Assembly (NCBI GenBank): GCA_000004695.1 | Contig: CM000151.3 | Span: 7,552,001 to 7,616,000 of the forward strand | Length of the DNA stretch: 64,000 nucleotides | Source: Dictyostelium discoideum | Lineage: Eukaryota | Direction: 5' to 3' | Part shown: positions 20,015-41,643 of the stretch, in pieces | Layout: each line of letters starts with the position of its first letter | Numbering within the stretch: position 1 is the first letter of the stretch | Made by a program: the position numbers and the translations under genes | Notes under the pieces: generated by a model | Databases searched by the model: none | Told to the model about the DNA's origin: nothing | The model's input: only the letters and a program-made list of their open reading frames with translations

Positions 20015-20575
20015 AATAAAAAAAATAAAAATTTTAAAAAAAAAAAAAAAAAAAAAAAAATAAAAATCGATATGAATGTCTTTTTAAAGGAAATCTTTCC
20101 AAACTAATTATAGTTTTTAAGATTATCCAATTTTTTTAATTTTTTAACTTGTGTTGGGTAATATGGAAAAATTAAAAATTAATTTAAAAAAAATTTTGTA
20201 AATTGTATATCTTTATTTTTCAATATCACAATATATTGAATTCTTTGAAATTTTTTATCATTATTTTTTTTTTTTAATTATTTTTGTTTTTCAGATTTCA
20301 TTTATTTTTCAACTGTTTTTCATTTATTTTTGCAATGATAATTAATGCAATTTAATTTAAAAAAATGGCAAAGATCCTTAAAATCTTTGTGTGGTGATCT
20401 AATTCCCATATCACTTAAAGAATAAAAATATTTTCAAAATGAAAAAAAAAATTAATATAAATAGATTTTTTTATTTTTTTTATTCATAATAAACATAAAC
20501 AAATAAACACTTAACATAAAGAAAAATATTACAAAATTAATAAATTAAAAAATTTATAAATAATAAAAATTAAAA

Positions 20576-21184
20576 ATGGCCACTCTTTTTGATATTTTAA
20601 ATACTCTTAATAATAATAATTATTTTGAAAATTGTAAAAGACAATGTTCAATAAATAAAAGCAATAAAACAATTATTGATATAATACCACCAATGGATGT
20701 AACAATGACAAATGATAAACTAATCATTGAAACAGAGTTAGCAGGTATTTCAAAAGATCATATTGAAATTGACATTAAAGATTCAATACTCACTATTCAA
20801 GGCGAAAAGAAAAAGAATTTAAATAAACAACAACAACAATTAGTTATTGAAAAATCAACAACATCATCAACAACATTAGATAGCAAAGAAGATGAAGCAT
20901 CAATTGAGGAGTTTGAAGATGATATTAAACCAAAATCAAAGTCTACAGTCACCACCACCGCCACTAAAGAGAATAAAGAAGATGAAAATAAAACAAAATT
21001 AAGTGATAAAAAGTTTATTTCAGAAAGATCATTTGGTAATTTTAAAAGATATTTAGATTTAACAAAAGTTTTATATCAATTAGATTTAAATTCAATCAAT
21101 ACTCAATTTGAAAATGGTTTATTAACAATTACAATCAATAAGAAATTACATTACTCAAATACAATTAAAATTAATATAAATTAA
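20576..21184 (+). CDS. Small heat-shock protein, alpha-crystallin/Hsp20 family (hspG-like), array copy A
   Basis: Carries the Hsp20 signature: [41 protein letters not shown]...[16 protein letters not shown]...[12 protein letters not shown]. Confidence 0.8.
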
Positions 21185-21712
21185 CCATTGGTCACCTTTA
21201 TTTTCATTCTTTACAAATACATGTATAATATTAATAAATTATAATAAATTATTATTTCTTTAAAATTATTTAAATAAAAAACTTTAAAAAAGATAAATAA
21301 AAAATCATTTCCAGAAATTTTTTTAAATTTTTTTTTTTATTTAAAACTTGATTTATATTTTTTTTATTTTATTTTTATTAAAAGAGAAATTAAAAATTAA
21401 AACATGTGGATTAAATGTTGGTTTATTAAATTTACCTTCAATAAAAATGATAGATAATTTTTTAAAAAAAAAAAAAAATAAAAAAAAAATTCAAAAGATA
21501 TAAATATCTCAAGTTATAATAAAATATTTTGTTCACTTGAAAATAATAGGCAATTATTTTTTTATAAAAAAAATAGAAATAAAATACTTTTAATTATTTA
21601 AATTCAAAACTTTTTATTATTTTTTAAAGAATTCTCTTTTTTATTTTATAATTATTATGGAAATTATTTTTTTTTTTGCCCTCATAAAAAATTAGAATCA
21701 CCAATCCAACTT

Positions 21713-21755
<43 letters not shown>

Positions 21756-22079
21756 TAAATTTTCATTTATATTTCAATTGTTTTTCATTTATTTTCACAA
21801 AGTTGTTCAGTGGAAGTTAAGTTATAAAATAACAATGATTCATAAAATCTTCGTGTAAAAAAATTTTTCATGTAATTTCCTTGTCATGGGGATTCATAAC
21901 TTTAAGGAGTAAAAAAAAAAAAAAAAAAAAAAATAAATAGTTTAAAAAACTTTTTTTTTTTTTCATTAAAACAAAAACAAAAATAAAAATTAAATTAAAT
22001 AAATAATAAATAAATAAACAAATAAAAAATCAAACAAATATATAAAAAAATAAAAAAATAAAAAAATAAAAAATTAAAA

Positions 22080-22712
22080 ATGGCAACAATCTTTGATATT
22101 TTAAATACTCTTAATAATAATAATAATAATAATAATTTTGAAAATTGTAAAAGACAATGTCCAATTAATAAAAGCAATAAAACGATTATTGATAAACTAC
22201 CACCAATGGATGTAACAATGACAAATGATAAATTAATCATTGAAACAGAGTTAGCAGGTATTTCAAAAGATCATATTGAAATTGATATTAAAGATTCAAT
22301 ACTCACTATTCAAGGTGAAAAGAAAAAGAATTTAAATAAACAACAACAACAATTAGTTATTGAAAAATCAACATCATCATCAACATTAGATAGCAAAGAA
22401 GATGAGCCATCGATTGAAGAGTTTGAAGATGATATTAAACCAAAATCAAAATCTGACAATACAACTGTATCTACTACAACCACCGCCACCACTAAAGAGA
22501 ACAAAGAAGATGAAAATAAAACAAAATCAACTGATAAAAAGTTTATTTCAGAAAGATCATTTGGTAATTTTAAAAGATATTTAGATTTAACAAAAATTTT
22601 ATATCAATTAGATTTAAATTCAATCAATACTCAATTTGAAAATGGTTTATTAACAATTACAATCAATAAGAAATTACATTATTCAAATACAATTAAAATT
22701 AATATAAATTAA
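22080..22712 (+). CDS. Small heat-shock protein (hspG-like), array copy B
   Basis: More than 90% identical to copy A; same alpha-crystallin motifs. Confidence 0.8.
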
Positions 22713-22867
22713 CTCCACTTTTATTTTCCCTTCTTTATAATTCTGAAAGTACATGTACATAATAGTAATAGTAATAATAATATTTTAATAATAAAATTAA
22801 TAAAATAAAAAAAAATAAAAAAACATTTAATTTAATTTTTCTTCTTCTTTTTCTTTTTTTTTTTTAT

Positions 22868-23150
22868 TTAATATTTAATTTTTAATATTAATTGTATTTT
22901 TTGATACTATCATTGCCCAAAATATTTCATTTATCGAAAATTCTATTTATATCTATTAAATATGCATCAGATTTTGATAAAGGAACAATATTATCATCAT
23001 TTGATATTATTGAATTTAATTTAGAAATTATTTTGTAATTAATTAATTAATATTATCAATTTTAAGAAATAATATATATATTTTTAAATAATTAATTATT
23101 ACATTTCATTTAAAAAATGATGATTTATAATCACCTCATTTAAATTTATT
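22868..23150 (-). pseudogene. Remnant of the GNAT acetyltransferase gene (internal deletion derivative) between sHSP copies B and C
   Basis: Contains fragments homologous to 25130-25290 ('...cccaaaatatttcatttat[c/t]gaaaattc...atatgcatcagattttgataaaggaacaatatta...') and to the exon-1 end ('attacatttcattt[g]aaaaatgatgattta'). The intervening sequence is missing. Confidence 0.6.
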
Positions 23151-23436
23151 TATTTTATTTTATTTTATTTTTATTTTTTTTAAAATCTATTTTTTATATG
23201 AAATATTATCCCTCTTGTTCTTTAAAATAAAAAAAAAAAAAATTATTAAAAATGATTATAAATAATTAAATTCTAAAAATAAAATTTTGGTAAAAAAAAA
23301 AAAAAAAAAAATTCAGAAAACAGAATTATCACATTCATTTTTTTATATTTTATATCATTTTGTGTATTTTTGAGTGTTCTATTGTTATATACTAAATTCA
23401 TAATAAAAATAAATAAAAATAAATAATTGTTTGAAA

Positions 23437-23467
<31 letters not shown>

Positions 23468-23594
23468 TTTATTAAGGACATTCCAATTGTTTTTTATCCA
23501 TAAAAAATTATTGGTCAGAATAATAAAAAGTTTATATTCCCACCATTATGAGGTATTCAAGTTTTAAAACCTAACTTAATTTTCTTTTTTTATT

Positions 23595-23637
<43 letters not shown>

Positions 23638-23657
23638 TTTTTTTTTTTTAAAATTTT

Positions 23658-23966
23658 CATTAAATTTTCATTTATTTTCTAATTGTTTTTCTTTTACTTT
23701 CACAATGTTTTTCAGTGGAAGTTAAGTTATAAAATAACAATGATTCATAAAATGTTCGTGTAAAATAATTTTTTGAGAATAACTTCCATGTAATGGTGAT
23801 TCATAACTTTAAGAATAAAAATATTTTTCAAAATGAAAAAAAAAAAATAATATAAATAGTTTAAAAACCTTTCTTTTTTTCTTCATTAAAACAAAAACAA
23901 ATAAAACAAAAACAAATAAAAATTAAATAAATAAATAAATAAATATAAAAAAAAAAACTTTTAAAA
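23658..23966 (+). promoter_or_regulatory. Conserved upstream module of the sHSP array genes, about 200 bp, with a TATAAATAG box about 110 bp before the ATG; also present at about 21763-22079, 26578-26925, 29590-29913, 33003-33240 and 35920-36266
   Basis: A near-identical block ('ttcatttattttctaattgtttttcatttactttcacaatgtttttcagtggaagttaagttataaaataacaatgattcataaaatgttcgtgtaaaataatttt..gagaataacttccatgtaatggtgattcataactttaagaataaaaatattttcaaaatgaaaaaaaaa..taatataaatag') recurs before every copy. It contains degenerate nTTCnnGAAn-like heat-shock-element motifs such as cTTTaaGAAt and TTCaaaatGAA. Confidence 0.5.
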
Positions 23967-24590
23967 ATGGCAACAATCTTTGATATTTTAAATACTCTTA
24001 ATAATAATAATTTTGAAAATTGTAAAAGACAATGTTCAACCAATAAAAGCAATAAAACAATTATTGATATACTACCACCAATGGATGTAACAATGACAAA
24101 TGATAAACTAATCATTGAAACAGAGTTAGCAGGTATTTCAAAAGATCAAATTGAAATTGACATTAAAGATTCAATACTCACCATTCAAGGTGAAAAGAAA
24201 AAGAATTTAAATAAACAACAACAACAATTAGTTATTGAAAAATCATCAACATCACCATCATCATCAACATTAGATAGCAAAGAAAACGGACCATCAATTG
24301 AAGAGTTTGAAGATGATATTAAGCCAAAATCAACCACCAGTACTACAACTGTATCTACAGCCACCACCACAAAAGAGAATAAAGAAGATGAAAATAAAAC
24401 AAAATCAAGTGATAAAAAGTTTATTTCAGAAAGATCATTTGGTAATTTTAAAAGATATTTAGATTTAACAAAAGTTTTATATCAATTAGATTTAAATTCA
24501 ATCAATACTCAATTTGAAAATGGTTTATTAACAATTACAATCAATAAGAAATTACATTACTCAAATACAATTAAAATTAATATAAATTAA
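23967..24590 (+). CDS. Small heat-shock protein (hspG-like), array copy C
   Basis: Intact 207-aa ORF with alpha-crystallin motifs. Confidence 0.8.
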
Positions 24591-24789
24591 CCAGTGGTCA
24601 CCTTCTTTATAATTCTGAAAATACATGTACATAATAAATAATAAATAGTAATAAATAATAATAATAATAATAAAATAAATACTTTTTTTGTAAATTGTTT
24701 AAAATATTTAATTTTAATTTTTTTTTTTTTTTTTTTATTTATTTATTTTTTTTTTTTTTTTTGTTTTATTTAATATTTAATATATAAAG

Positions 24790-25421
24790 TTAATTTTTAT
24801 TTTTTGAAATAATCATAGTTGTTACAGAATAGGAATATTTAAAACCTAATTTTTCAACGAGAGAATTTGATATTGTATTATCATACACAGTTGAACATAA
24901 AGGTATAATATTATTTTCAATTGATGATAATGTTAATTTTGCTTTAACTTTTAATGCAATACCTTTACATCTAAATTCTGGCAATGTGTATAAATTTGAT
25001 GATTTTCCATCAGATTTAATATAATTCCAACAAACTAAATTATTACTATTATTAATTTTCTTTTCGTCATTTTCATCAACTATTATATTGACTTTATTAT
25101 TACTAGTAGTTTTATAACCAAATGCTAAACCATTTTCAATTGCCCAAAATATTTCATTTATTGAAAATTCCGTTTTATATCTATAATTGTCATTTATAAA
25201 ATATGCATCTGATTTTGATAAAGGAACAATATTATTATCATTTGAAATTATTGAATTTAATTTAGAAATTATTTTGATTTTATTTTCCATATCATTAATA
25301 TCTATAATAAAATGATTATAAAAAGGAACTGTTTTAATTTTAAATCCACATTCTTGGAAAAATTCTTCAATGAATTTAACTAAAATTGGATTTTCAATAT
25401 CTCCAAAATAAAAAGTATTAC

Positions 25422-25455
<34 letters not shown>

Positions 25456-25904
25456 AAGAGAATTAATAAATATAAAAATACAATAGTTATCTATTTTTAG
25501 AAATAATATACATATATTGTTAATAATTATTACATTTCATTTGAAAAATGATGATTTAAAATTGCATCATTTAAATTTGTTTTTTTTAATAGTTCCTCCA
25601 TTTCAATAGCATTTATACTATTGAAATATCCTTTTTCCCAATCAATTGATTTAATTACATTTTTAACGATTTCAAAATCTAAATTTTCATTATTTAATGT
25701 AAATAATTTTATAAAATTTGTAATTAATGATATTGATACTATTACACTCGGTGAATCATAATTATCTGTAAAATATTCATATAATCCAATTTTAGTTTGG
25801 TTTTCAATAAAATCAAATTGAGGAAATCCTTTTGTTTTTTTGAAAAAACTTTTGTCTTTTATGTGTATTAGTATTGATTTTTTATTATTTTCTTTTATTA
25901 ACAT
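24790..25904 (-). CDS. GNAT-family N-acetyltransferase-like protein, array copy 1: complement(join(24790..25420,25534..25904)), about 333 aa
   Basis: Exon 1 gives MLIKENNKKS...NHHFSNE, with donor GTAATAA at 25533. The acceptor TTATAG ends at 25421. Phase-2 splice AT|T continues to NTFYFGDIENPILVKFIEEFFQECGF... and then a C-terminal GNAT-like core: LYTLPEFRCKGIALKVKAKLTLSSIENNIIPLCSTVYDNTISNSLVEKLGFKY. Confidence 0.6.
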
Positions 25905-26372
25905 TTTTATTTATTTTTTAAAAACTACATAAACCCTCTAAATAATAATAATAAAAAAAAAAAAAAAAAAAAAAACAAATTTAAAAAAAAAATAAACAAA
26001 TAAAAAAAAAAAACAAATAAATTAAAAAAAAAAAAAAAAATTTAAAAAAAAAAAAAAGTAAAAGTGTGTTGAATAATTTCTTTTTTAATTTCATGATAAA
26101 CAGTTATTACTATTCAATTTATTTAAATACATGTTTGTTATAATTATTTTTTTAATTGTTTTCTAAAAATTATATTACACTTCAAACACAACAAAAATTA
26201 TGTTGAGAAAAGTAGGTGGATGCGGACATGACCGCTTCTGTTTAATTAAAAAAATTATTATTATATTATTATTATTTTCTAAAAATTTTATATTTTATAT
26301 GATTTTGTGTATTTTTGAGTGTTCTATTGTAATTAACTAAATTCATAATAAAAATAAATAAAATTAAATATT

Positions 26373-26411
<39 letters not shown>

Positions 26412-26925
26412 TTAAGTAATTATTAAGGACAATCCAATTGTTTTTTATCCATAAAAAATTATTGGTCAGAGTAATAAAAAAAGTTTATATTCCCATTATC
26501 ATGAGATATTCAAGTTTTACAACCTTATTTTCCTTTTTTTATTTCATTTTTTTTTTTTTTTTATTTTTTTTAAAAATTTCATTAAATTTTCATTTATTTT
26601 CTAATTGTTTTTCATTTACTTTCACAATGTTTTTCAGTGGAAGTTAAGTTATAAAATGACAATGATTCATAAAATGTTTGTGTAAAATAAATTTTGAGAA
26701 TAACTTCCATGTAATGGTGATTCATAACTTTAAGAATAAAAATATTTTCAAAATGAAAAAAAAAAAAATAATATAAATAGTTTAAAAATCTTTCTTTTTT
26801 CTTCATTAAAACAAAAACAAAAACAAATAAAAATTAAATAAATAAATAAGTAAATAAATAAATAAATTAAATAGTAACTAAATTAATTATTATTAAATAA
26901 ATATATAAAAAAAAAACTTTTAAAA

Positions 26926-27561
26926 ATGGCAACAATCTTTGATATTTTAAATACTCTTAATAATAATAATAATAATAATTTTGAAAATTGTAAAAGACAA
27001 TGCTCAACCAATAAAAGCAATAAGACAATTATTGATATACTACCACCAATGGATGTAACAATGACAAATGATAAACTAATCATTGAAACAGAGTTAGCAG
27101 GTATTTCAAAAGATCATATTGAAATTGACATTAAAGATTCAATACTCACTATTCAAGGTGAAAAGAAAAAGAATTTAAATAAACAACAACAACAATTAGT
27201 TATTGAAAAATCATCAACATCACCATCATCATCAACATTAGATAGCAAAGAAGATGAACCATCAATTGAAGAGTTTGAAGATGATATTAAACCAAAATCA
27301 ACCACCAGTACTACAACTGTATCTACTACCACCACCGCCACTAAAGAGAATAAAGAAGATGAAAATAAAACAAAACCAACTGATAAAAAGTTTATTTCAG
27401 AAAGATCATTTGGTAATTTTAAAAGATATTTAGATTTAACAAAAGTTTTATATCAATTAGATTTAAATTCAATCAATACTCAATTTGAAAATGGTTTATT
27501 AACAATTACAATCAATAAGAAATTACATTATCCAAATCCAATTAAAATTAATATAAATTAA
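26926..27561 (+). CDS. Small heat-shock protein (hspG-like), array copy D
   Basis: Intact 211-aa ORF. Confidence 0.8.
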
Positions 27562-27759
27562 CCAGTGGTCGCCTTCTTTATAATTGCGAAAATACATGTA
27601 CATAATAAATAATAAATAATAATAAATAATAATAAAAAAAAAAAAAAAAAAAAAAAATAATAAATACTTCTTTGTAAATTCTTTTAATAAAAAAAAAAAA
27701 AAATATTTAATTTTATTTTTATTTTTAATTTTTTTTTTTTTTTTTGTTTTATTTTATAT

Positions 27760-28877
27760 TTAATATATAAAGTTAATTTTATTTTTTGAAATAATCATTG
27801 TTGTTACAGAATAGGAATATTTAAAACCTAATTTTTCAATAAGAGAATTTGATGGTGTATTATCATATGCTACCGAACATAAAGGTATAATATTATTTTC
27901 AATTGATGATAATGTTAATTTTGCTTTAACTTTTAATAATACCTTTACATCTAAACTCTGGTAATGTGTGTAAATTTGATGATTTTCCATCAGATTTAAT
28001 ATAATTCCAGCAAACTAAATTATTACTATTATTAATTTTCTTTTCTTCATTTTCGTCAACAACTATATTGACTCCATTATTATTTTTATTATTATTATTA
28101 TTATCATTATTAATTTTATAACCAAATGCTAAACCATTTTCAATTGCCCAAAATATTTCATTTATTGAAAATTCTGTTTTATATTTATAATTGTCATTTA
28201 TAAAATATGCATCTGATTTTGATAAAGGAACAATATTATCATCATTTGAAATTATTGAATTTAATTTAGAAATTATTTTGATTTTATTATCTATATCATT
28301 AATATCAATAATAAAATGATTATAAAAAGGAACTGTTTTTATTTCAAACCCACATTCATGGAAATATTCTTCAATGAATTTTACTAATATTGGGTTTTCA
28401 ATATCTCCAAAATAAAAAGTGTCTCTAAAAAAAAAAAAAAATAATTCATAGAATTAATAAATATAAAAATACAATAGTTATCTATTTTGTGTTAATAATA
28501 ATTACATTTCATTTGAAAAATGATGATTTAAAATCGCATTTATTTGATTTGTCTTTTTTAATAGTTCATCCATTTCAATAGAATTCATACTATTGAAATA
28601 TCATTTTTTCCAATCAATTGATTTAATTACATTTTTAACGATTTCAAAATCTAAATTTTCATTATTTAATGTAAATAATTTTATAAAATTTGTAATTAAT
28701 GATATTGATACTATTACACTTGGTGAATCATAATTATCTGTAAAAAATTCATATAATCCAATTTTAATTTGGTTTTCAAATAATATCAAATTGAGGAAAT
28801 CCTTTTGTTTTTTTGAAAAAACTTTTGTCTTTTATATGTATTAATATTGATTTTTTATTATTTTCTTTTACTAACAT
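27760..28877 (-). pseudogene. GNAT acetyltransferase-like gene, array copy 2, disrupted
   Basis: Homologous along its full length to copy 1, but exon 1 has a 1-nt insertion ('gatattatttgaaaacc' versus 'gattttattgaaaacc') that introduces TGA. Only short ORFs remain (27760..27990 and 28601..28789). Confidence 0.6.
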
Positions 28878-29348
28878 ATTTATTTATTTATAAGCTCAAA
28901 AACCCACTAAATAATAACACCAAAAAAAAAAAAATAAAAAATAAATTAAAAAAAAAAATAAACAAATAAAAAAAAAAAAATTAAAAAAAAAAAAAAAGTA
29001 AAAGTGTGTTCTATAATTTCTTTTTTAATTTCATGAAAACAGTAAATACTGTTCAATTTATTTAAATACATATTTGTTATAATTATTTTTAAATTGTTTT
29101 CTAAAAATTTTATTAAACTATTTTTTTTTTAAATCTATTTTTTAATATAAAATGTATTCCCTTTAATTATTCTTCAAAATAAAAAAAATAATTATAAAAA
29201 ATGAATGATTCTAACTTAAAAAAAAAAAAAAAAAAAAAAAAACAGAATGATTAAATTCAATTTTTTTATATTTTATAAGACCTTGTGTAATCTGGAGCGT
29301 TCTATGTTTATATACTAAATTCATATTAAAAATAAATAAAATTAAATC

Positions 29349-29380
<32 letters not shown>

Positions 29381-29913
29381 TTAAAGTGTCAAATTAAATA
29401 TTTATCAAGGATGTATCACTTTTTTTTTATCATAAAAAATTATTGAAGAGTTATAAAAAAAGTTCATATTCCCATTATGAGGGATTCAAGTTTTAAAGTT
29501 ATAAGAAAAGTTTATATTCCCATTATGAGGTATTCAAGTTTTACATAACCCATTTTCCTATTTAATTTTTTTTTTTTTTTTAAAAAATTTCATTTATTTT
29601 TCAATTATTTTTCATTTATTTTCACAATGTTTTTCAGTGGAAGTTAAGTTATAAAATAATAATTATTCATAAAATGTTCGTGTAAAATAATTTTTTGCGA
29701 ATGACTTCCATGTAATGGTGATTCACAATTTTAGGAATAAAAATATTTTCAAAATGAAAAAAAAATAATATAAATAGTTTAAAAATCTTTCTTTTTTTAA
29801 AACAAAAACAAAAACAAAAACAAAAACAAAAACAAAAACAAAAACAAATAAAAAAGTAAACAAAAAATAAAATTAATTATTATTAAATAAATAAAAAAAA
29901 AAAAATTTTAAAA

Positions 29914-30519
29914 ATGGCAACAATCTTTGATATTTTAAATACTCTTAATAATAATAATTTTAAAAATTGTAAAAGACAATGTCCAATTAATAAAAGCAAT
30001 AAAACAATTATTGATATAATACCATCAATGGATGTAACAATGACAAATGATAAACTAATCATTGAAACAGAGTTAGCAGGTATTTCAAAAGATGATATTG
30101 AAATTGACATTAAAGATTCAATACTCACTATTCAAGGTGAAAAGAAAAAGAATTTAAATAAACAACAACAACAATTAGTTAGTGAAAAATCATCAACATC
30201 ACCATCAACATTAGATAGCAAAGAAGATGAACCATCAATTGAAGAGTTTGAAGATGACATTAAACCAAAATCAGCCACCAGTACTACAACCACCACCACT
30301 AAAGAGAACAAAGATGATGAAAATAAAACAAAATCAAGTGATAAAAAGTTTATTTCAGAAAGATCATTTGGTAATTTTAAAAGATATTTAGATTTAACAA
30401 AAGTTTTATATCAATTAGATTTAAATTCAATCAATACTCAATTTGAAAATGGTTTATTAACAATTACAATCAATAAGAAATTACATTACTCAAATACAAT
30501 TAAAATTAATATAAATTAA
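29914..30519 (+). CDS. Small heat-shock protein (hspG-like), array copy E
   Basis: Intact 201-aa ORF. Confidence 0.8.
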
Positions 30520-30701
30520 CCAGTGGTCACCTTTATTTTCCTATTCTTTACAATTCTGAAAATACATGTACATAATAAATAATAATATATTTAATAAAAA
30601 ATAATAAATACTTTTTTGTAAATACTTTAAAATAAAAAAAAAAGCATTTAATTTAACATTTCTTTTTTCCTTTTTTTTATTGTTTTATTTATTTAATATT
30701 A

Positions 30702-31828
30702 TTATTCAAAATTAATTTTATTTTTTGATATTACCATTACTGCCATAGAATAGGAATATTTAAAACCTAATTTTTCAATAAGAGAAATTGAATTTATATT
30801 ATCATGTGATGTTGAACATAATGGTATAATATTATTTTCAATTGATGATAATGTTAATTTTGCTTTTACTTTTAATGCAACACCTTTACATCTAAATTCT
30901 GGTAACGTGTATAAATTTGATGATTTTCCATCAGATTTAATAAAATTCCAACAAACTAAATCATTACTATTTTTAACTTTCTTTTCTTTTTCATCATTTT
31001 CATCAAAAACTATATTGACTTTATTATTATTTTTATTTTTATTATTATAATTATTATTATTATTATAATTATTAATTTTATAACCAAATGCTAAACCATT
31101 TTCAATTGCCCAAAATATTTCATTTATTGAAAATTCCGTTTTATATTTATAATTGTCATTTATAAAATATGCATCAGATTTTGATAAAGGAACAATATTA
31201 TTATCATTTGAAATTATTGAATTTAATTTAGAAATTATTTTGATTTTATTATCTATATTATTGATATCAATAATATAATGATTAAAAGGAAATGTTTTAA
31301 CTTCAAATCCACATTCTTGGAAATATTTTTCAATGAATTTAACTAAAATTGGATTTTCAATATCTCCAAAATAAAAAGTATTACTAAATAAATAAATTAA
31401 AAAAGGAAAAAAGAAATTATTAGTTTTGAAATAATATGTATAAAAATTAATTATTACATTTCATTTGAAAAATGATGATTTAAAATTGCATCATTTAAAT
31501 TTGTTTTTTTTAATAGTTCCTCCATTTCAATAGCATTAAAACTATTGAAATATCCTTCTTTCCAATCAATTGATTTAATTACATTTTTAACGATTTCAAA
31601 ATCTAAATTTTCATTATTTAATGTAAATAATTTTATAAAATTTGTAATTAATGATATTGATACTATTACACTCGGTGAATCATAATTATCTGTAAAAAAT
31701 TCATATAATCCAATTTTAATTTGATTTTCAATAAAATCAAATTGAGGAAATCCTTTTGTTTTTTTGAAAAAACTTTTATCTTTTATATGTATTAATATTG
31801 ATTTTTTATTATTTTCTTTTAATAACAT
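30702..31828 (-). CDS. GNAT acetyltransferase-like gene, array copy 3: complement(join(30702..31383,31458..31828))
   Basis: Exon 1 (ORF 31454..31828) is intact. Donor GTAATAA at 31457 and acceptor TTATTTAG ending at 31384. Exon 2 is open to TAA at 30702-30704 and is absent from the ORF track only because it has no internal Met. Confidence 0.55.
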
Positions 31829-32574
31829 ATTTATTTTATTTATTTATTTATTTATTTATTTATTAATTTATTTTTATTTATTTGTTAATTAATAGGGATA
31901 AAATTAAAAATGAAAATAATATTTTTTTTTAATAAATTACTCTATAAAAAATCAACCTTAAATTTAAATGATAACCAATGTTTTTTAAATTAATATAAAA
32001 AAAATTAATTTAAAAACATTAAATATTATTAAATTTTATTAATAATAAAACACGAAAAATACTAATAATTAATAAAACTAATAAAAGAATTATTTATAAA
32101 TTACCACCAATGATTGAAACCGAATTGATAATTTTCTTTTTTAAACATTTTTATGGAGATAAAAAAAAAAATAAAAAAAAAAAAAAAAATAAAAAAAAAA
32201 TATAAAAAAAACAGATATAAAATAGAACAAATAAGAAAAAAAAAAATTAATTAATTAATTAAAATAATGAAAAAGTGTTTTTAAAAAAATGACAAAGTGT
32301 TTTTGTTTTAATTATGATAAATTAATATTATTTTAGATATATTTTTTTTATTTTTTTAATTTCAATTTAAATTACAAATCATACATTATATTGTTCATCA
32401 GTTGAATTTTCTTACATAATTGCATAAACATCTTGCATAAATAATTAAAAATAAATAAAAAAACAAAAAGTGTACACATTGTGATTTTAAATTTTAAATC
32501 TTTATTTAATTTTATTTTATTTTATTTTATTTATTTTTTTCTTTAATTATTAAAAGTTTATCCAATTAGGATAG

Positions 32575-32690
32575 AATTAAAAATTGCAGGCCGAATTGTT
32601 TCGGACTGCGTTGTGGAATAGTTTGCAAAAAGCACTAACAGTGGATCCCTTATCGGTCACGCCCTACTGCTTTGGTCCCAGCGTAAAGAC
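32575..32690 (-). ncRNA. Candidate small non-coding RNA gene: a GC-rich island of about 110 nt in AT-rich intergenic DNA, with a DUSE-like upstream element
   Basis: The plus strand has ggccgaattgtttcggactgcgttgtgg...ggatcccttatcggtcacgccctactgctttggtcccagcg. On the minus strand the motif TTGCCCATAAC (plus 32745-32755) lies about 60 bp upstream of the island. The minus-strand transcript would end ...GGCCTGCAATTTTT (a T-run). It contains the local hairpin CCGAA-TTGT-TTCGG. Confidence 0.3.
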
Positions 32691-33240
32691 AAAATAAAAA
32701 AATCCTTCTAAATCTTAATAAATATTATCATTTGTTAATATTATTGTTATGGGCAATTTCCCTATAATAAAATTTTCAATAATTGAATTATTTACAACAA
32801 TAGGAACAATATTAATTAAAGGGTTATATAAAAATAAAAAATTCTAAAGTAAATTTTTAAAAAAAAAAAAAATAAAAAAAAAAAATAAAAATTTTTCAAA
32901 AAGTTTATTTATTTTTATTAAAAATAAAATTATATTTGAACCTAAAGTTGAAGTACAAGTTGGTTTTGAAATTTAACTAAAAAAAAAAAAAAAAAAATGT
33001 TTGTGATTATTCAATTGTTTTTCATTTACTTACGCAATGTTTTCCAGTGGAAGTTTAGCTATAAAATAACAATGGTTCATTAAATCTTCGTGTAAAATAA
33101 TTTTTTGTGAATAACTTCGATGTAATGGTGATTGAAAATGAAAAAAAAAAATAACATAAATAGTTTTTTTTTTTTTTTTGATTAAAACAAAAACAAATAA
33201 ATAAATAAATAAATTAATAAATTGATAAATTAATCAGAAA

Positions 33241-33882
33241 ATGGCAACAATCTTTGATATTTTAAATACTCATAATAATAATAATAATTTTGAAAATTGT
33301 AAAAGACAATGCTCAACCAATAAAAGCAATAAAACGATAATTGATATACTACCATCAATGGATGTAACAATGACAAATGATAAACTAATCATTGAAACAG
33401 AGTTAGCAGGTATTTCAAAAGATCATATTGAAATTGACATTAAAGATTCAATACTCACTATTTAAGGTGAAAAGAAAAAGAATTTAAATAAACAACAACA
33501 ACAACAACAACAACAAAAACAATTAGTTATTGAAAAATCAACATCATCAACAACATCATTAGATAGAAAAGAAGATGAAGCATCAATTGAAGAGTTTGAA
33601 GATGATATTAAACCAAAATCAAAATCTGATAATACAACTGTATCTACAGCCACCACCACCACTAAAGAGAACAAAGAAGACGAAAATAAAACAAAATCAA
33701 CTGATAAAAAGTTTATTTCAGAAAGATCATTTGGTAATTTTAAAAGATATTTAGATTTAACAAAAATTTTATATCAATTAGATTTAAATTCAATCAATAC
33801 TCAATTTGAAAATGGTTTATTAACAATTACAATCAATAAGAAATTACATTATTCAAATACAATTAAAATTAATATAAATTAA
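33241..33882 (+). pseudogene. Small heat-shock protein (hspG-like), array copy F, with an in-frame nonsense codon
   Basis: It is in frame throughout with the other copies, except TAA at 33463-33465 (ILTI*GEKK, where others have CAA/Gln). The rest, ...[16 protein letters not shown]...ININ*, is intact in the same frame. Confidence 0.7.
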
Positions 33883-34048
33883 CCAGTGACCACCTTTATT
33901 TTCCCTTCTCTATAATGTTAAATATTAAATAAAACAATAAAAAATAAAAAAAAGGAAAAAGAAATATTAAATTAAATATTTTTTTTTTTATTTAAAGTAT
34001 TTATTATTTTATTTTTGAATATATTGTGTGTTATTATTATTATTATTA

Positions 34049-34106
<58 letters not shown>

Positions 34107-34124
34107 CTAAATGTATTTTCACAA

Positions 34125-35242
34125 TTAAAAATTAATTTTATTTTTTGATATTACCATTACTGCTATAGAATAGGAATATTTAAAACCTAATTTTTCAATG
34201 AGAGAATTTGATTTAGTATTGTCATGTGCTGTTGAACATAGTGGTATAATATTATTTTCAATTGATGATAATGTTAATTTTGCTTTAACTTTTAATGCAA
34301 TACCTTTACATCTAAACTCTGGTAATGTAAATAAATTTGATGATTTTCCATCAGATTTAATAAAATTCCAACAAACTAAATTATTATTATTATAATAATT
34401 ATTAATATTGTTTTCATCATTTTCATCAACAACTCTATTGACTTTATTATTGTTATTATTATTAATTTTATAACCAAAAGCTAAACCATTTTCAATTGCC
34501 CAAAGTAATTCATTTATTGAAAATTCCGTTTTGTATCTATAATTGTCATCTATATAATATGCATCAGATTTTGATAAAGGAACAATATTATCATCATCTG
34601 AAATTATAGAATTTAATTTAGAAATTACTTTGGTTTTATTGTCAATATCATTAATATCAATAATATAATGATTAAAAGGAAATTTTTTAACTTCAAATCC
34701 ACATTCTTGGAAATATTCTTCAATGAATTTAACTAAAATTGGGTTTTCAATATCTCCAAAATAAAAAGTATTACTAAAAAAAAAAAAAAAAGGAAAAAAA
34801 AAAAAAATATACTTTATTAGTTTTGAAATAATATATATATATATATATTGCTAATTAAAATTAATTATTACATTTCATTTGAAAAATGATGATTTAAAAT
34901 TGCATCATTTAAATTTGTTTTTTTTAATAGTTCCTCCATTTCAATAGCATTTATACTATTTAAATATCCTTTTTCCCAATCAATTGATTTAATTACATTT
35001 TTAACGATTTTAAAATCTAGATTTTCATTATTTAATGTAAATAATTTTATAAAATTTGTAATTAATGATATTGATACTATTACACTCGGTGAATCATAAT
35101 TATCTGTAAAATATTCATATAATCCAATTTTAGTTTGGTTTTCAATAAAATCAAATTGAGGAAATCCTTTTGTTTTTTTGAAAAAACTTTTATCTTTTAT
35201 AGGTATTAATATTGATTTTTTATGATTTTCTTTTAATAACAT
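34125..35242 (-). CDS. GNAT acetyltransferase-like gene, array copy 4: complement(join(34125..34773,~34872..35242))
   Basis: Exon 1 ORF 34868..35242 is intact. The same GTAATAA donor and TTTTTTAG acceptor are present. Exon 2 is open to TAA at 34125-34127. Confidence 0.55.
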
Positions 35243-36145
35243 TTTTATTTATTTATAAATAGGAATAAAATTAAAAAAATGAATAAGTGTTTTTTTTCTT
35301 TATTATAATTTTATATGTTTTATATTTATTTTTTTTTTTTTCAATTTTTTTTTTAATTTCATTATTGTTAATTTGGTCTTCTAACTTAAATGTATAAACA
35401 TATCATTTTTTTTATATTTTTTTTTATTTTTTTTATTTATTTTTAGGGGGGTGGGGTGGTGTGGTAGGTCACATGTTTCACCAAAAATCATTTAAATTAA
35501 AAATTAAAGGTGTTTTAAATATAAAAAAAGGTTAAAAAATGCAGGATTTACTTTTTTTATATTTAGATTTATTTTAATTTTACAATCAAAATAAAATTAC
35601 GTTTTAATTTAACAGTTACCTTTTAAAAAATTAATATAAAAGACCCAAAATAACACTTAATCAATTAGTGAACAGAAAATGTTTTTAGGCAGTTGAAAGT
35701 TAATAATTTTTGTGGTGGTAATGATGGATAATCAGAATGCACCAAAATTATTTTTTATATTTTAATGTATTTCAATCCGATGAGAAAAATTTAAATAAAA
35801 ATTAAAAAAAAAAAAAAAAGTTATTTTTAGTGTTTAGTCTCTTTTTTTTTTTTTTTTTAAATTTTATTTCCAGATTTTTTACCCCTTTTTATTTTTTTTA
35901 TTTTTTTCAAAAATTTCATTTAATTTCCAATTATTTTTCATTTATTCCTACAATGTTTTTCAGTGGAAGTTAAGTTATAAAATAGCAATGATTCATAAAA
36001 TGTTCGTGTAAAATAATTATTGTGAATGACTCCCATGTAATGGTGATTCACAACTTTAAGAATAAAAATATTTTCAAAATGAAAAAAAAATAATATAAAT
36101 AGTTTGAAAACCTTTCTTTTTTTTTTTCATTAAATCAAAAACAAA

Positions 36146-36197
<52 letters not shown>

Positions 36198-36266
36198 AGA
36201 TTAATAAATAAATAAATAAATAAATAATAAATTAATAAATTAATAAATTGATAAATTAATCAGAAA

Positions 36267-36516
36267 ATGGCAACAATCTTTGATATTTTAAATACTCTTA
36301 ATAATAATAATTTTGAAAATTGTAAAAGACAATGCTCAACCAATAAAAGCAATAAAACAATTATTGATATACTACCACCAATGGATGTAACAATTACAAA
36401 TGATAAACTAATCATTGAAACAGAGTTAGCAGGTATTTCAAAAGATCAAATTGAAATTGACATTAAAGATTCAATACTCACTATTCAAGGTGAAAGAAAA
36501 GATTTAAATAAACAAC

Positions 36517-36554
<38 letters not shown>

Positions 36555-36916
36555 TTAGTTATAGAAAAATCAACATCAACATCATCAACTTTTAGATAGA
36601 AAAGAAGATGAAGCATCAATTGAAGAAGTTTGAAGATGATATTAAACCAAAATCAAAATCTGACAACAGAACTGTATCTACTACAACCACCGCTACTAAA
36701 GAGAATAAAGAAGATGAAAATAAAACAAAATCAAGTGATAAAAAGTTTATTTCAGAAAGATCATTTGGTAATTTTAAAAGATATTTAGATTTAACAAAAG
36801 TTTTATATCAATTAGATTTATATTCAATCAATACTCAATTTGAAAATGGTTTATTAACAATTACAATCAATAAGAAATTACATTATTCAAATACAATTAA
36901 AATTAATATAAATTAA
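36267..36916 (+). pseudogene. Small heat-shock protein (hspG-like), array copy G, frameshifted
   Basis: Split into ORFs 36267..36599 and 36608..36916. Indels relative to the other copies include a 'tcaacatcaacatcatcaactttt' insertion and 'gaagaagtttg' with an extra 'a'. Confidence 0.7.
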
Positions 36917-37218
36917 CCAGTGACCACTTTTATTTTCCCTTCTTTATAATTCTGGAAATACATGTACATAATAATAAATAATAATACATTTAATAAAATA
37001 ATAAAATAAATACTTTTTGTAAAAACTTTAAAATAAATATGAAATTAATTTTTTCCTTTTTATGATTTTCTTTTTAAACTCTTTGATATGTATATATAAG
37101 TAATTATGAAAAAAATTTAAATTTATTTGATATGATTTTAAGACACGTATTAATTATAAACATCAAACTACAAATAGGGTTTTTTATTATATATATAAAA
37201 AAATTGTTGAAATTTTAT

Positions 37219-39516
37219 TTATTTGTTAATTTTTTTTAACTTGTTTAAAAGAACACTTTCACCTTTTTTACGATAAATTAAAAAACCAATTGCACCAATT
37301 GCGGAAACACCAACAACACTTGCAACTACAGCGACTGGGATAACATAACTTTTTCTTCCATCTTTTGAATTACCACATTCATTTTTAAATTCTGGACTAA
37401 TTAAGACTGAGAAATCTGGATCAATGATACAAGATTCAATGCAATGTGGTAAATCTAATGAAATTGAAATTGAATCCTTACTTTCATTTTTCATTGAAGT
37501 TAATAAATATGTTGGTCTTCCGTCTGAAACTAACTTGTTTATAAATCTTCCTTCTAAAATTTTATTATTTTTTGAAATTTTAATATAATTGAAAGTAGAT
37601 TCACCATCTTTATTATTGATTGTATTAATTGATGTATCCATTTCATTACATTCATTATCATCTGAATTTATTTGATCTACTGATGAAACTAATTCTAATT
37701 TTAAAGTATTTAAGTTATTTTTGTATGAATAGTTATAAATTCCAATACTAAATTTAATTGAACCATATTGTAAATTAAATGTTTCATCTGCAAATGTATA
37801 TTCTTTACCATTTCTGTTTGTAATTTCTTCAATCTTTGAAATAATTGAGCAATTGCTTTGAATTGTTTGAGATAATGTGTAAATAATTTCATTTTTGCTG
37901 TTTGTTGAATTTGTTGTCCAATTGTTTCGAAGAGAATATGTTGCTACTATATTACCATTAAAATCAATTTCGTATAATGATTTGAAAAAGATTTGGAATT
38001 GAACTTCTTGATTTGAAATTGTTGTATTACCAGTACCTGGATCGACACCAGTATCAGTTGGTGGGTTTCCGTTATTACCTCCATCGCTATCGCTATTGCT
38101 TCCTCCGTTATTACCTCCGCCTGGATTAATGATACCACTACAATCTGCACCATTGAATCCATTATTACATTTACATTGACCATTTAAAGTATTGCATGTA
38201 CCTTGATTTGAACATTTATTTGGACATGTTTGGTTATTAATATTTAAATATTGATATTTATCATAAGAGTATGTAATGTTATTTTGAGTTACAACTACAA
38301 GCTTTACACCAAAACCTGGAGGTGCTGTACAATTTAAAACTGTTGTTGAATTATATAGTAATGGACATGGTAAATTTCCAATTGTGATTGATAGATTATT
38401 ATGAGTATCACCAAAGAAGCCAATAAAGCTTGCAACACCACCATTGGTTGTTGAAGGTATTGTTGAAGTTATATAATGGTATGGTATTAAACAAGTTGGA
38501 CCTGACCAAGAATTTTCTTTACAATTGCATTCACCTTTAGTTGTGTCACATACACCATTTGAATTACAATCTAGTGGATCACACTCAATAAATAATATTG
38601 AACAATCACTACCTCGATGAGATGAATCACAAATACATTCACCTATGGTAGTATTGCAATAACCATTACCTGAACAATCTGGAACTGAACATTCAATACC
38701 TAAGCAATCACTACCTATAAATCCTGGTAAACATTTACAAGTACCTGAACTTAAATCGCAAATTGAATTAACTCCAACTGATGTTGAACAATCATTTGGA
38801 CAAACTTGATTATTATCGAAATTTGATTCGATCTTAATATATGCTTTTACATTGAATGAATCTTTTTCAATTGAAATTATTTGTAATGGAATTGTTGAAT
38901 TTGAAATTGGTAATTGTTTACCACTTTCCATTGTACATTGTGCTCCGAAAAAGTCACTACTTGTAATTGTTGAACAATTACCTACATTTTGAATTTGAAC
39001 TTGTTGATTTGTAAATCCTAAATAACTTGAAAAATGTGTACCACTTACTTGAATTTCATTACCTGTGCTTTTAATTAAAACTGATTTTATAATTGGTGGA
39101 ATATTATAATTTGTTGGGAATGTATATGTAACATTATTTGGAGTTGTGAATAAAACTGGAAAATATTCAACATTTTTCAAATTATTATTAGCTCCTACCA
39201 TTGTTGCTGTATAATTTTTACCATTTTGATTAATAACATATGTTGTTGGATCTAATGAAATTGTTAAATTAATTTTCCATAATGTTACATCGAATCCAAT
39301 ATCATTACCAGTTACCATTACTTTATTAAATATACCATCATTAATTAATTCTACTTTTGGTCTAAATGTTGTGCATGGTGTATTTGTATTAAAGTTTGAA
39401 AACTTATTACTAGCAAATCTTGAAAACATTGATTTTTGTGTTAATTTTGAATAACTATTTACTGTTGTTACATTAAAATAACATGCAAAACAAGATGGAA
39501 CTAATCTGAATATTTG

Positions 39517-39583
<67 letters not shown>

Positions 39584-41090: not shown

Positions 41091-41643
41091 TTTATTTGTT
41101 ATATAATGAAACGAATTAAAAAAAAAAAAAAAATCAAAAAATTTAGAAAGAAACTTGCTGAAAATGTTCATTGTTTTTTTTTCTTTTTTTTTTAAAAAAT
41201 ATCTGAAAAAATCTCCTATGTTGACGTTTTGTGTATTTTTTTTTTTTTTTTTTTCTCTGAAACAAATTGTTATTTTTTTTTTTTTTTTTAAAAACCATGT
41301 GTTTTTATTAAAGTTTTTTTTTTTTTTTTTTTTTTTTAGATATTTTCTAAAAATATCTTTTTTTTTTGACGATTTTGTTTCTGATAAGGGTGATTGGATG
41401 TACAAAAAATTTAAGCATTAAATTGGTGAAAAGTAATTTTATGTGGCTCTGGTGGGTTTGTCGCCTTTTTTTTTTTTTTTACTTTTATTTTTTTATTTTC
41501 TATGAGACTACCCTTAATTAGTTTCTGATCAGGACCTTTTTTTTAAGACACGTATTAATTATAAACATCAAACTACAAATAGGGTTTTTTATTATATATA
41601 AAAAAAAATTGATGAGAAAATTAAAAAATTGTTGAAATTTTAT

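Follow-up and report, generated by a model that had tools for sequence, protein, structure and literature searches.

The window, by which we mean the complete 64,000-nucleotide stretch of DNA that was analysed, covers the annotated hspG5-hspG11 small heat-shock protein (sHSP) gene cluster on chromosome 2 of Dictyostelium discoideum AX4. Self-BLAST revealed head-to-tail repeats of up to 2.7 kb each, with 85-93% identity, between 20.4 and 37.0 kb. The four full units, each combining an sHSP gene with a GNAT gene, measured 2959, 2988, 3327 and 3026 bp, in agreement with an earlier sequence-only reading that had proposed a repeated unit of about 3 kb. At the left end of the array there are two shorter, sHSP-only steps (1504 bp from copy A to copy B, and 1887 bp from copy B to copy C). 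Between units, the coding and promoter blocks were 84-99.5% identical, while the identity of the spacers fell to 40-77%. In total, AX4 carries seven sHSP copies, four GNAT copies and one GNAT remnant. The array itself was already known: all of its genes are annotated in the model-organism reference, and hspG1-hspG12 are known to form a co-regulated family of stress genes. The sHSP copies are located as follows.

20576..21184, + strand: copy A, hspG5, 202 aa, intact (ORF; exact match to UniProt Q8MPA7)
22080..22712, + strand: copy B, hspG6, 210 aa, intact (ORF; exact sequence match)
23967..24590, + strand: copy C, hspG7, 207 aa, intact (ORF; Pfam; exact sequence match)
26926..27561, + strand: copy D, hspG8, 211 aa, intact (ORF; exact sequence match)
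29914..30519, + strand: copy E, hspG9, 201 aa, intact (ORF; exact sequence match)
33241..33882, + strand: copy F, hspG10, truncated to 74 aa (alignment; the 74-aa stub is UniProt Q550E5)
36267..36916, + strand: copy G, frameshifted in the window (alignment; intact, 216 aa, in an independent assembly)

All seven copies were recovered by tblastn, as had been predicted, and their assignment to the alpha-crystallin sHSPs was verified both by the exact matches to hspG proteins and by the match of hspG7 to the Pfam HSP20 profile (PF00011; 51.7 bits against a cut-off of 20.8, E 9.8e-14). This match falls into two stretches because an S/T/Q-rich low-complexity insert of ~60-70 aa splits the domain. 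The ORFs and their alignment likewise showed five intact copies of 201-211 aa, the copies varying chiefly in poly-N length, the polyQ run and the S/T-rich linker. Copy F was found to be inactivated, as proposed, by a single CAA to TAA change at codon 75 (window positions 33463-33465; ATT-CAA-GGT to ATT-TAA-GGT), and the same stop is present in the second assembly.

Over 21.2 kb, the window aligns colinearly, at 99.54% identity, with the independent assembly GCA_054883475.1, which shows the identical layout of seven sHSP and four GNAT copies. Copy G had been considered dead by indels. Several indels between positions 36494 and 36626 are indeed present in the window, but its death is probably not real, as these indels are absent from the independent assembly, where copy G has an intact frame (216 aa, with a Q15 run). 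The indels in the window are therefore probably errors of the reference sequence. Gene conversion was rejected as a source of the differences between the two assemblies, because both retain the G-specific variants and, in the stretch separating the indel sites, the long (CAA)n tract specific to copy G. Judging from the order of the gene identifiers, copy G is probably hspG11 (DDB_G0277125). This correction, which would make hspG11 a probable 216-aa protein with a Q15 run, is new.

An upstream module of 168-193 bp (about 190 bp), ending in the TATA-like sequence ATATAAATAG, was found by alignment to precede all seven sHSP copies, so that the conserved promoter module of about 200 bp that had been postulated is real.

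20297..20464, + strand: promoter module of copy A, aligned conserved block ending in ATATAAATAG
21762..21940, + strand: promoter module of copy B, aligned conserved block
23667..23859, + strand: promoter module of copy C, aligned conserved block
26589..26780, + strand: promoter module of copy D, aligned conserved block
29589..29777, + strand: promoter module of copy E, aligned conserved block
33000..33163, + strand: promoter module of copy F, with an internal deletion, aligned conserved block
35915..36102, + strand: promoter module of copy G, aligned conserved block

This cassette is common to the AX4 copies and to the single-copy sHSP gene of D. firmibasis. The module contains TTCAGTGGAA (TTC-N4-GAA) and phased TTC units. 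A perfect three-unit heat-shock element, nGAAnnTTCnnGAAn, occurs nowhere in the window, and a recurring match to it with one mismatch falls within the GNAT coding sequence. Between the start codons of the sHSP and GNAT genes we found no shared conserved region: conservation was limited to the sHSP-adjacent module, and the ~700 bp adjoining the GNAT start were not conserved, being 40-68% identical between units.

The GNAT genes are encoded on the opposite strand, and four array copies match the annotated genes DDB_G0277117, DDB_G0277121, DDB_G0276955 and DDB_G0276957.

22911..23056, - strand: GNAT remnant, residues ~173-218, in two reading frames (tblastn at 22911-23034; blastn match to 31105-31261)
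24790..25904, - strand: G1, DDB_G0277117, 333 aa, intact (gene model; 100% match to the annotated protein)
27778..28877, - strand: G2, pseudogene, annotated as the 224-aa partial DDB_G0277121 (alignment and translation)
30702..31828, - strand: G3, DDB_G0276955, two exons, 74-nt intron, 350 aa, intact (spliced translation equals the annotated protein, P0005)
34125..35242, - strand: G4, DDB_G0276957, two exons, 98-nt intron, 339 aa, intact (spliced translation equals the annotated protein, P0003)

The two-exon model suggested for G1 was confirmed by the annotation, with exon 1 at 25904-25534, an intron of 113 nt (GTAATA...TTATAG) and exon 2 at 25420-24790. In G2, exon 1 has gained one nucleotide and exon 2 has lost two, and these lesions as well as the remnant were found in exactly the same state in the second assembly. 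Spliced translations, alignment and tblastn thus upheld the previous count of three intact GNAT copies, one frameshifted copy and one remnant.

G1 exceeded the Pfam cut-offs for FR47 (31.7 bits; cut-off 22.1) and GNAT_acetyltran (29.2 bits; cut-off 26). It possesses the CoA-pyrophosphate motif A, (Q/R)-x-x-G-x-(G/A), as R274-C-K-G277-I-A279, in which R274 and G277 are invariant among nine close relatives and nearly invariant in a 13-sequence family alignment. An AlphaFold2 model of G1 based on the 13-sequence diverse alignment reached a pLDDT of 84.8 and a pTM of 0.84 (input of the nine close homologues gave a pLDDT of 38.8 and was discarded); an Asn-rich disordered insert occupies residues 231-248. 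The model had 99 PDB matches at E<=0.001, and the best 50 of these 99 were all GNAT-fold acyltransferases or uncharacterised proteins. It shares a length of ~300 aa and the two-lobed tandem-GNAT fold with bovine GLYAT (PDB 7pk0, 7pk1; Foldseek E 1.7e-12, TM 0.62/0.71), and the same fold with the FR47-like protein CG14615 (PDB 1sqh; TM 0.63/0.70), at an identity of merely 10-12%. The family profile of the array GNAT matched 1sqh at 2e-9 and GLYAT at 5.6e-6, and the R-x-x-G-x-A motif (R274-A279) is carried as in the GLYAT/FR47-like relatives. The likeness to GLYAT lies in the fold and not in Pfam family membership, Gly_acyl_tr_C scoring 17.8 bits (below the cut-off of 27) and Gly_acyl_tr_N giving no match. 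Taken from the Pfam profiles and the model, the GNAT is predicted to be a two-lobed FR47/glycine-N-acyltransferase-like enzyme; its assignment to the GLYAT/FR47-like tandem-GNAT fold is new here. Of the original designation as a GNAT acetyltransferase, the GNAT fold therefore stands, while 'acetyltransferase' is too specific because the closest characterised relative is a glycine N-acyltransferase, which conjugates small molecules.

Co-regulation of the hspG family has been reported under stress and infection, and HSPG1 and HSPG2 increase under heat stress (PMC6584373). The genes hspG5 to hspG11 decreased together in one differential-expression list (log2FC -2.8 to -3.3), which the source paper attributes to M. 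marinum exposure. DDB_G0277117, DDB_G0276955 and DDB_G0276957 were absent among the entries listed in any of the differential-expression lists of that dataset, where low-count genes may be filtered. In a dnmA knockout, DDB_G0276957 was elevated along with hspG1, hspG2, hspG4, hspG11 and hspG12 (log2FC 2.8, padj 0.026, low counts). A search for GNAT expression in the supplements of PMC9686302, PMC12405889 and PMC8584165 yielded nothing.

The locus was compared between species and strains at the syntenic interval from zf-AN1 to ComC. D. firmibasis has one sHSP gene and no GNAT there. D. dimigraforme has five sHSP genes, with a single GNAT between sHSP paralogues, and the same arrangement was observed in D. 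citrinum, with at least seven sHSP genes, one GNAT and an additional 23-aa GNAT scrap. D. cf. discoideum has an interleaved sHSP/GNAT array, and a second D. discoideum strain carries five sHSP and three GNAT copies as compared to seven and four in AX4. Among the species compared, the 3-kb unit of sHSP plus GNAT is thus duplicated in D. discoideum and D. cf. discoideum alone. The sHSP promoter and the GNAT start lie head-to-head in D. dimigraforme (653 bp apart), D. citrinum (641 bp) and AX4 (1.0-1.4 kb). Since the GNAT lies between sHSP paralogues in three species, their common ancestor must already have possessed two or more sHSP copies flanking it. All relatives of this GNAT subfamily that were found in AX4 were copies from this array, and the nearest GNAT paralogue located elsewhere has no sHSP gene next to it. 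The genes hspG1, 2, 4 and 12 are located outside the array.

Array paralogues differed by a dS of 0.06-0.20, so the array can be called young, as had been suggested, in a relative sense only. For the GNAT paralogues, dS amounted to 0.10-0.16, as compared to 0.15-0.22 against D. cf. discoideum and 0.46-0.56 against D. citrinum. Both gene types are under purifying selection (dN/dS: sHSPs 0.2-0.65, GNATs 0.29-0.50). Moreover, the copies are mosaic, i.e. they exchange sequence: among the sHSPs, 131 of 231 informative site pairs were incompatible, and a PHI-type permutation test gave p about 0.001 for sHSP and GNAT alike. The sHSP copies grouped by species with 100% bootstrap support. Direct repeats, pseudogenes, copy-number differences between strains and exchange, the marks of tandem birth-and-death and concerted evolution, were all found, and the description of the locus as a birth-and-death array was borne out.

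Unequal crossing-over, birth-and-death and gene conversion are known to shape other tandem arrays of stress genes, for instance the Drosophila 67B sHSP cluster and the duplicated hsp-16 pairs of C. elegans. The hspG array shares with such clusters the direct repeats with their own promoters, the pseudogenes, strain copy-number variation, mosaicism and clustering by species. It differs in lacking a canonical three-unit heat-shock element and in that, in one lineage, an unrelated enzyme gene, encoded on the other strand, forms part of its unit. We consider it probable, at about 0.8, that the hspG array turns over by unequal crossing-over and gene conversion and that the GNAT was co-amplified as a passenger. 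From the architecture and the mosaicism we infer that sHSP paralogues in direct repeat undergo unequal crossing-over and gene conversion, through which the array would grow, shrink and homogenise. Before the split of D. dimigraforme, D. citrinum and D. discoideum, one GLYAT/FR47-like GNAT gene would have lodged between two of these paralogues, in head-to-head orientation to the first and tail-to-tail orientation to the second. As the GNAT lies between direct repeats, any misaligned exchange between the sHSP genes on its two sides necessarily duplicated or removed it. The exchange register would have been ~3 kb in D. discoideum and D. cf. discoideum, and the GNAT would therefore have been copied as a passenger, while the registers in D. 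citrinum and D. dimigraforme would have comprised sHSP genes alone, at 1.2-1.9 kb. An ancient ~190-bp promoter cassette accompanies each sHSP copy, which would explain the co-regulation of the family. Single copies decay, as is seen in copy F, G2 and the GNAT remnant.

The fixed co-amplification of the two genes had previously been taken to suggest that they are co-regulated or functionally linked. Such a selected module, with shared stress regulation via a divergent promoter and an acyltransferase that acts with or on the chaperone (e.g. by stress-induced acylation), would explain why adjacency and head-to-head orientation were kept in three species, why three GNAT copies were retained under constraint and why the dnmA knockout raised DDB_G0276957 together with several hspG genes. 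However, the pairing is not obligate, as is shown by D. citrinum and D. dimigraforme, where sHSP genes were amplified around one GNAT. Also against a module are the variable DNA upstream of the GNAT, the absence of the three intact-copy GNAT identifiers among the listed entries where hspG5-11 co-move, the nearest paralogue without an sHSP neighbour, and the location of hspG1, 2, 4 and 12 elsewhere when all AX4 relatives of the GNAT subfamily that were found are in the array. In addition, the closest relatives by fold that have been characterised are enzymes conjugating small molecules, not proteins. The link was thus not supported as stated; a functional coupling of sHSP and GNAT is weakly supported, and we regard a selected module as quite unlikely. 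Somewhat more doubtful still is the specific idea that the GLYAT-like acyltransferase is a true stress partner of HspG, driven by the sHSP promoter and either N-acylating HspG or its clients or detoxifying acyl-CoAs from proteotoxic stress; if it were, the three retained GNAT copies would reflect selection for matched dosage and not hitch-hiking. The conserved head-to-head layout, the three constrained intact GNATs and the response of DDB_G0276957, which are counterpoints to the passenger model, are compatible with a degree of shared regulation; a pure-passenger model does not require such regulation but leaves room for it.

If the array had expanded independently in each species, starting from one sHSP and one GNAT ancestor, in separate recent bursts and without concerted evolution, this would account for the strict species clustering of the sHSP copies and for the single copy of D. 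firmibasis. The ancestral presence of at least two sHSP copies flanking the GNAT and the mosaic site patterns argue against it. Conceivable but unlikely, this scenario departs from the passenger model solely in the weight given to gene conversion versus copy turnover. Finally, AT-rich repetitive DNA in an early shotgun assembly, together with the cluster of probable local errors in copy G, might point to collapsed or expanded repeats in the reference. Yet the units differ by 7-15% from each other, each with its own indels, pseudogene lesions and spacers, homologous arrays exist in related strains and species, and the independent assembly reproduces the array, which is therefore real; we give practically no credence to an artefact.

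The array matters little beyond curation. Also new is the comparative series, in which an unrelated gene trapped between tandem paralogues co-amplifies in one lineage and not in its sisters; this is a useful caution against inferring function from co-duplication.

With respect to other elements, no tRNA genes were found as duplication or retrotransposon targets, and a candidate dispersed repeat at 33962-34153, with matches at 51.1 kb and 63.5 kb, proved to be merely an (ATT)n microsatellite. A GC-rich island at 26212-26240 is present in one unit alone. One further gene was detected:

32559..32690, - strand: U4 snRNA, single-copy (Rfam RF00015, full length, 52.3 bits against a gathering score of 46)

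This gene sits in the long spacer between G3 and copy F, outside the repeated unit, and is preceded by CCCATAA ~60 nt upstream.

The genes of this locus were annotated before, and the cluster they form is an ordinary one; the most useful by-products of its analysis were the comparative history of the array, the fold assignment of its GNAT proteins and what is probably a mistake in the reference, through which hspG11 seems dead. Proteins encoded in the window are exact matches to those of D. discoideum AX4 chromosome 2. Within the window, where G+C content ranges from 14 to 32%, self-BLAST of 18-40 kb revealed head-to-tail repeats of 85-93% identity in stretches of up to 2.7 kb, as the sequence-only reading had described. 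With unit boundaries set at successive sHSP promoters, the four full units span 2959, 2988, 3327 and 3026 bp, and to their left lie two shorter steps of 1504 bp (A to B) and 1887 bp (B to C). A tblastn inventory recovered seven sHSP genes, four full-length GNAT genes and one GNAT remnant, and the earlier list of intact and dead copies was right in all details checked.

Gene copies of the array
sHSP A, B, C, D and E (+): intact, 202, 210, 207, 211 and 201 aa, annotated as hspG5, hspG6, hspG7, hspG8 and hspG9, respectively
sHSP F (+): stopped by one CAA to TAA change at codon 75; the 74-aa stub is annotated as hspG10 (UniProt Q550E5)
sHSP G (+): reading frame disrupted by indels in the reference; by the order of gene ids, probably hspG11 (DDB_G0277125)
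GNAT gene model (-): two exons, 113-nt intron, 333 aa
GNAT G1 (-): annotated as DDB_G0277117
GNAT G2 (-): two frameshifts (+1 and -2); DDB_G0277121 is a partial model of this pseudogene
GNAT G3 and G4 (-): intact once spliced, annotated as DDB_G0276955 and DDB_G0276957
22911-23034: GNAT remnant retaining only residues ~173-218

Both gene identities proposed from the sequence were correct. Of the sHSP genes, hspG7 matched HSP20 at 51.7 bits (cut-off 20.8), the alpha-crystallin domain being matched as two stretches because a low-complexity insert divides it. In hspG7 (23967-24590), Ser-96, listed as a phosphosite in an AMPK phosphoproteomics supplement (PMC8584165), falls in this variable S/T-rich linker. 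The GNAT proteins scored above the Pfam cut-offs of both FR47 and GNAT_acetyltran. Among 1.8 billion representative proteins searched, full-length relatives of ~300 aa with 26-42% identity came from dictyostelids (among them Tieghemostelium, Cavenderia and AX4 itself, with the paralogue DDB_G0295741), and more distant ones from rotifers. The family profile matched the Drosophila FR47-like protein (PDB 1sqh) at 2e-9 and glycine N-acyltransferase at 5.6e-6. A structure model built from 13 diverse sequences reached a pLDDT of 84.8 and a pTM of 0.84, while nine close homologues gave a pLDDT of only 38.8. Over its whole length, the model was most similar in the PDB to bovine GLYAT (E 1.7e-12, TM 0.62/0.71) and 1sqh (TM 0.63/0.70); the protein carries an intact R-x-x-G-x-A motif and an Asn-rich disordered insert. 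These profile and model matches indicate a two-lobed, GLYAT-like predicted acyl-CoA N-acyltransferase. Accordingly, the absence of an acetyltransferase fold, which had been named as a possible objection, was not observed, and the fold part of the original 'acetyltransferase' label stands, while its 'acetyl' specificity is narrower than the evidence.

Conceivably, such an array could be an assembly artefact, as the sequence-only reading had itself cautioned. This was ruled out by the independent assembly GCA_054883475.1, which is colinear with 20660-41860 at 99.54% identity (15 mismatches, 19 gaps), has the identical layout of seven sHSP and four GNAT genes, and exactly repeats the TAA stop of copy F, the frameshifts of G2 and the GNAT remnant. 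The assemblies show 33 differences, of which seven fall in 36494-36626, precisely where copy G is broken, and elsewhere the two are 99.9% identical. Five of these seven are indels, and jointly the seven explain every frameshift of copy G. In GCA_054883475.1 this segment matches the consensus of the paralogues, and copy G there codes for an intact sHSP of 216 aa that includes a Q15 run. Gene conversion does not account for the differences, since both assemblies retain the variants specific to copy G that lie between the indel sites; most likely, the frameshifts stem from local reference-sequence errors near the (CAA)n run. The indels noted earlier are thus present in the reference, but the gene is probably not dead. 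Transcripts attributed to hspG10 and hspG11 reportedly show joint regulation with the rest of the hspG family. At two further positions the independent assembly carries the paralogue-consensus base: 27538 in hspG8 (reference P, T in other copies) and 29962 in hspG9 (reference K, E in other copies, in FKNCKRQ). These could be genuine strain SNPs or more reference errors.

In all species examined, the locus is flanked by a zf-A20/zf-AN1 gene and ComC-like genes.

sHSP and GNAT genes per species, from uniform tblastn mapping
D. firmibasis: sHSP 1, GNAT 0
D. dimigraforme: sHSP 5, GNAT 1
D. citrinum: sHSP at least 7, GNAT 1 plus a 23-aa GNAT scrap
D. cf. discoideum: interleaved array; some copies partial, one sHSP inverted
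Second D. discoideum strain: sHSP 5, GNAT 3
AX4: sHSP 7, GNAT 4 plus remnant

Wherever found, the GNAT gene lies head-to-head with one sHSP gene (at 653 bp in D. dimigraforme, 641 bp in D. citrinum and 1.0-1.4 kb in AX4) and tail-to-tail with another. GNAT dS was 0.10-0.16 within AX4, 0.15-0.22 to D. cf. discoideum and 0.46-0.56 to D. citrinum, and in the GNAT tree the AX4 and second-strain copies were interleaved in two clades (bootstrap 94-100%). Together these findings place the onset of sHSP and GNAT co-duplication after the D. citrinum split and before the divergence of the two strains. The sHSP copies grouped strictly by species. Site patterns are mosaic, with incompatibility in 131 of the 231 informative pairs for the sHSP genes and p ~0.001 for both sHSP and GNAT in a PHI-type permutation test, which shows that copies continue to exchange sequence. 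The birth-and-death dynamics claimed from the sequence were well founded. Misaligned exchange between direct repeats would necessarily duplicate or delete a gene trapped between them, which could explain the 3-kb unit without any functional argument. Between two sHSP copies of D. citrinum, in a part of the array otherwise devoid of GNAT, sits the 23-aa scrap, which derives from the GNAT C-terminus (E 6e-5; L002:5237-5305, in the locus of that species); this hints that the lineage also had at least one co-duplication, followed by GNAT loss.

Values of dN/dS were 0.2-0.65 for sHSP copies, 0.29-0.50 for GNAT copies and 0.29-0.33 for single-copy GNAT orthologues, which indicates that both gene types are functional and that the duplicated GNATs have undergone no more than a mild relaxation of constraint. 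Identity between copies was 91-99.5% for sHSP coding sequence, ~90% for the sHSP promoter module, 84-98% for GNAT exons, 62-77% for the tail-to-tail spacer and 40-68% for the ~700 bp upstream of GNAT, where similarity is limited to G1 versus G2. A conserved block of 168-193 bp, with the 3' end ATATAAATAG, precedes all seven sHSP copies, and D. firmibasis has this promoter cassette at its single-copy gene as well. The window lacks a canonical three-unit heat-shock element. Of the seven modules (e.g. 23667-23859), five contain TTCAGTGGAA (TTC-N4-GAA); the module also has four TTC units with 10-11 bp phasing inside TTTCATTTATTTTTCAATTGTTTTTCATTTATTTTCAC, a core whose conservation extends to D. 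firmibasis.

The sequence-only reading had taken co-amplification to suggest co-regulation or a functional link; on functional coupling it over-reached. In one differential-expression list hspG5-11 drop jointly (log2FC -2.8 to -3.3), which the paper ascribes to M. marinum exposure, and the gene ids of the three intact GNAT copies were not found in any such list of that study. In a dnmA knockout, DDB_G0276957 was up (log2FC 2.8, low counts), as were hspG1, 2, 4, 11 and 12, of which hspG1, 2, 4 and 12 are located elsewhere on the chromosome. All relatives of this GNAT subfamily found in AX4 are copies of the hspG array, and the nearest paralogue outside the array, in D. dimigraforme, has no sHSP neighbours. 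On this expression and location evidence, the two gene types may be co-regulated via the head-to-head arrangement; a biochemical link is speculative.

Inside the array, a full-length U4 spliceosomal snRNA gene at 32559-32690 (-) (Rfam RF00015, 52.3 bits, gathering score 46) occupies the spacer that separates G3 from sHSP copy F, the only spacer with ~400 bp of extra length. About 60 nt upstream of it lies CCCATAA, which resembles the DUSE element that precedes Dictyostelium ncRNA genes. The orthologous spacer is also occupied in the second D. discoideum strain (L005:5793-5925, +); the loci of D. cf. discoideum, D. citrinum, D. dimigraforme and D. firmibasis lack the U4 gene. A 29-nt GC-rich island, CAGAAGCGGTCATGTCCGCATCCACCTAC, lies at 26212-26240 (-) in an AT-rich spacer, only in the G1-D unit and inside ~100 bp that cannot be aligned with other units. 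The flanking ComC-like EGF/beta-sandwich genes at 37136-39536 and 41541-44921 (Pfam ComC_SSD, 3e-80) are duplicated nearby with ~96.9% identity, a duplication more recent than that of the hspG units.
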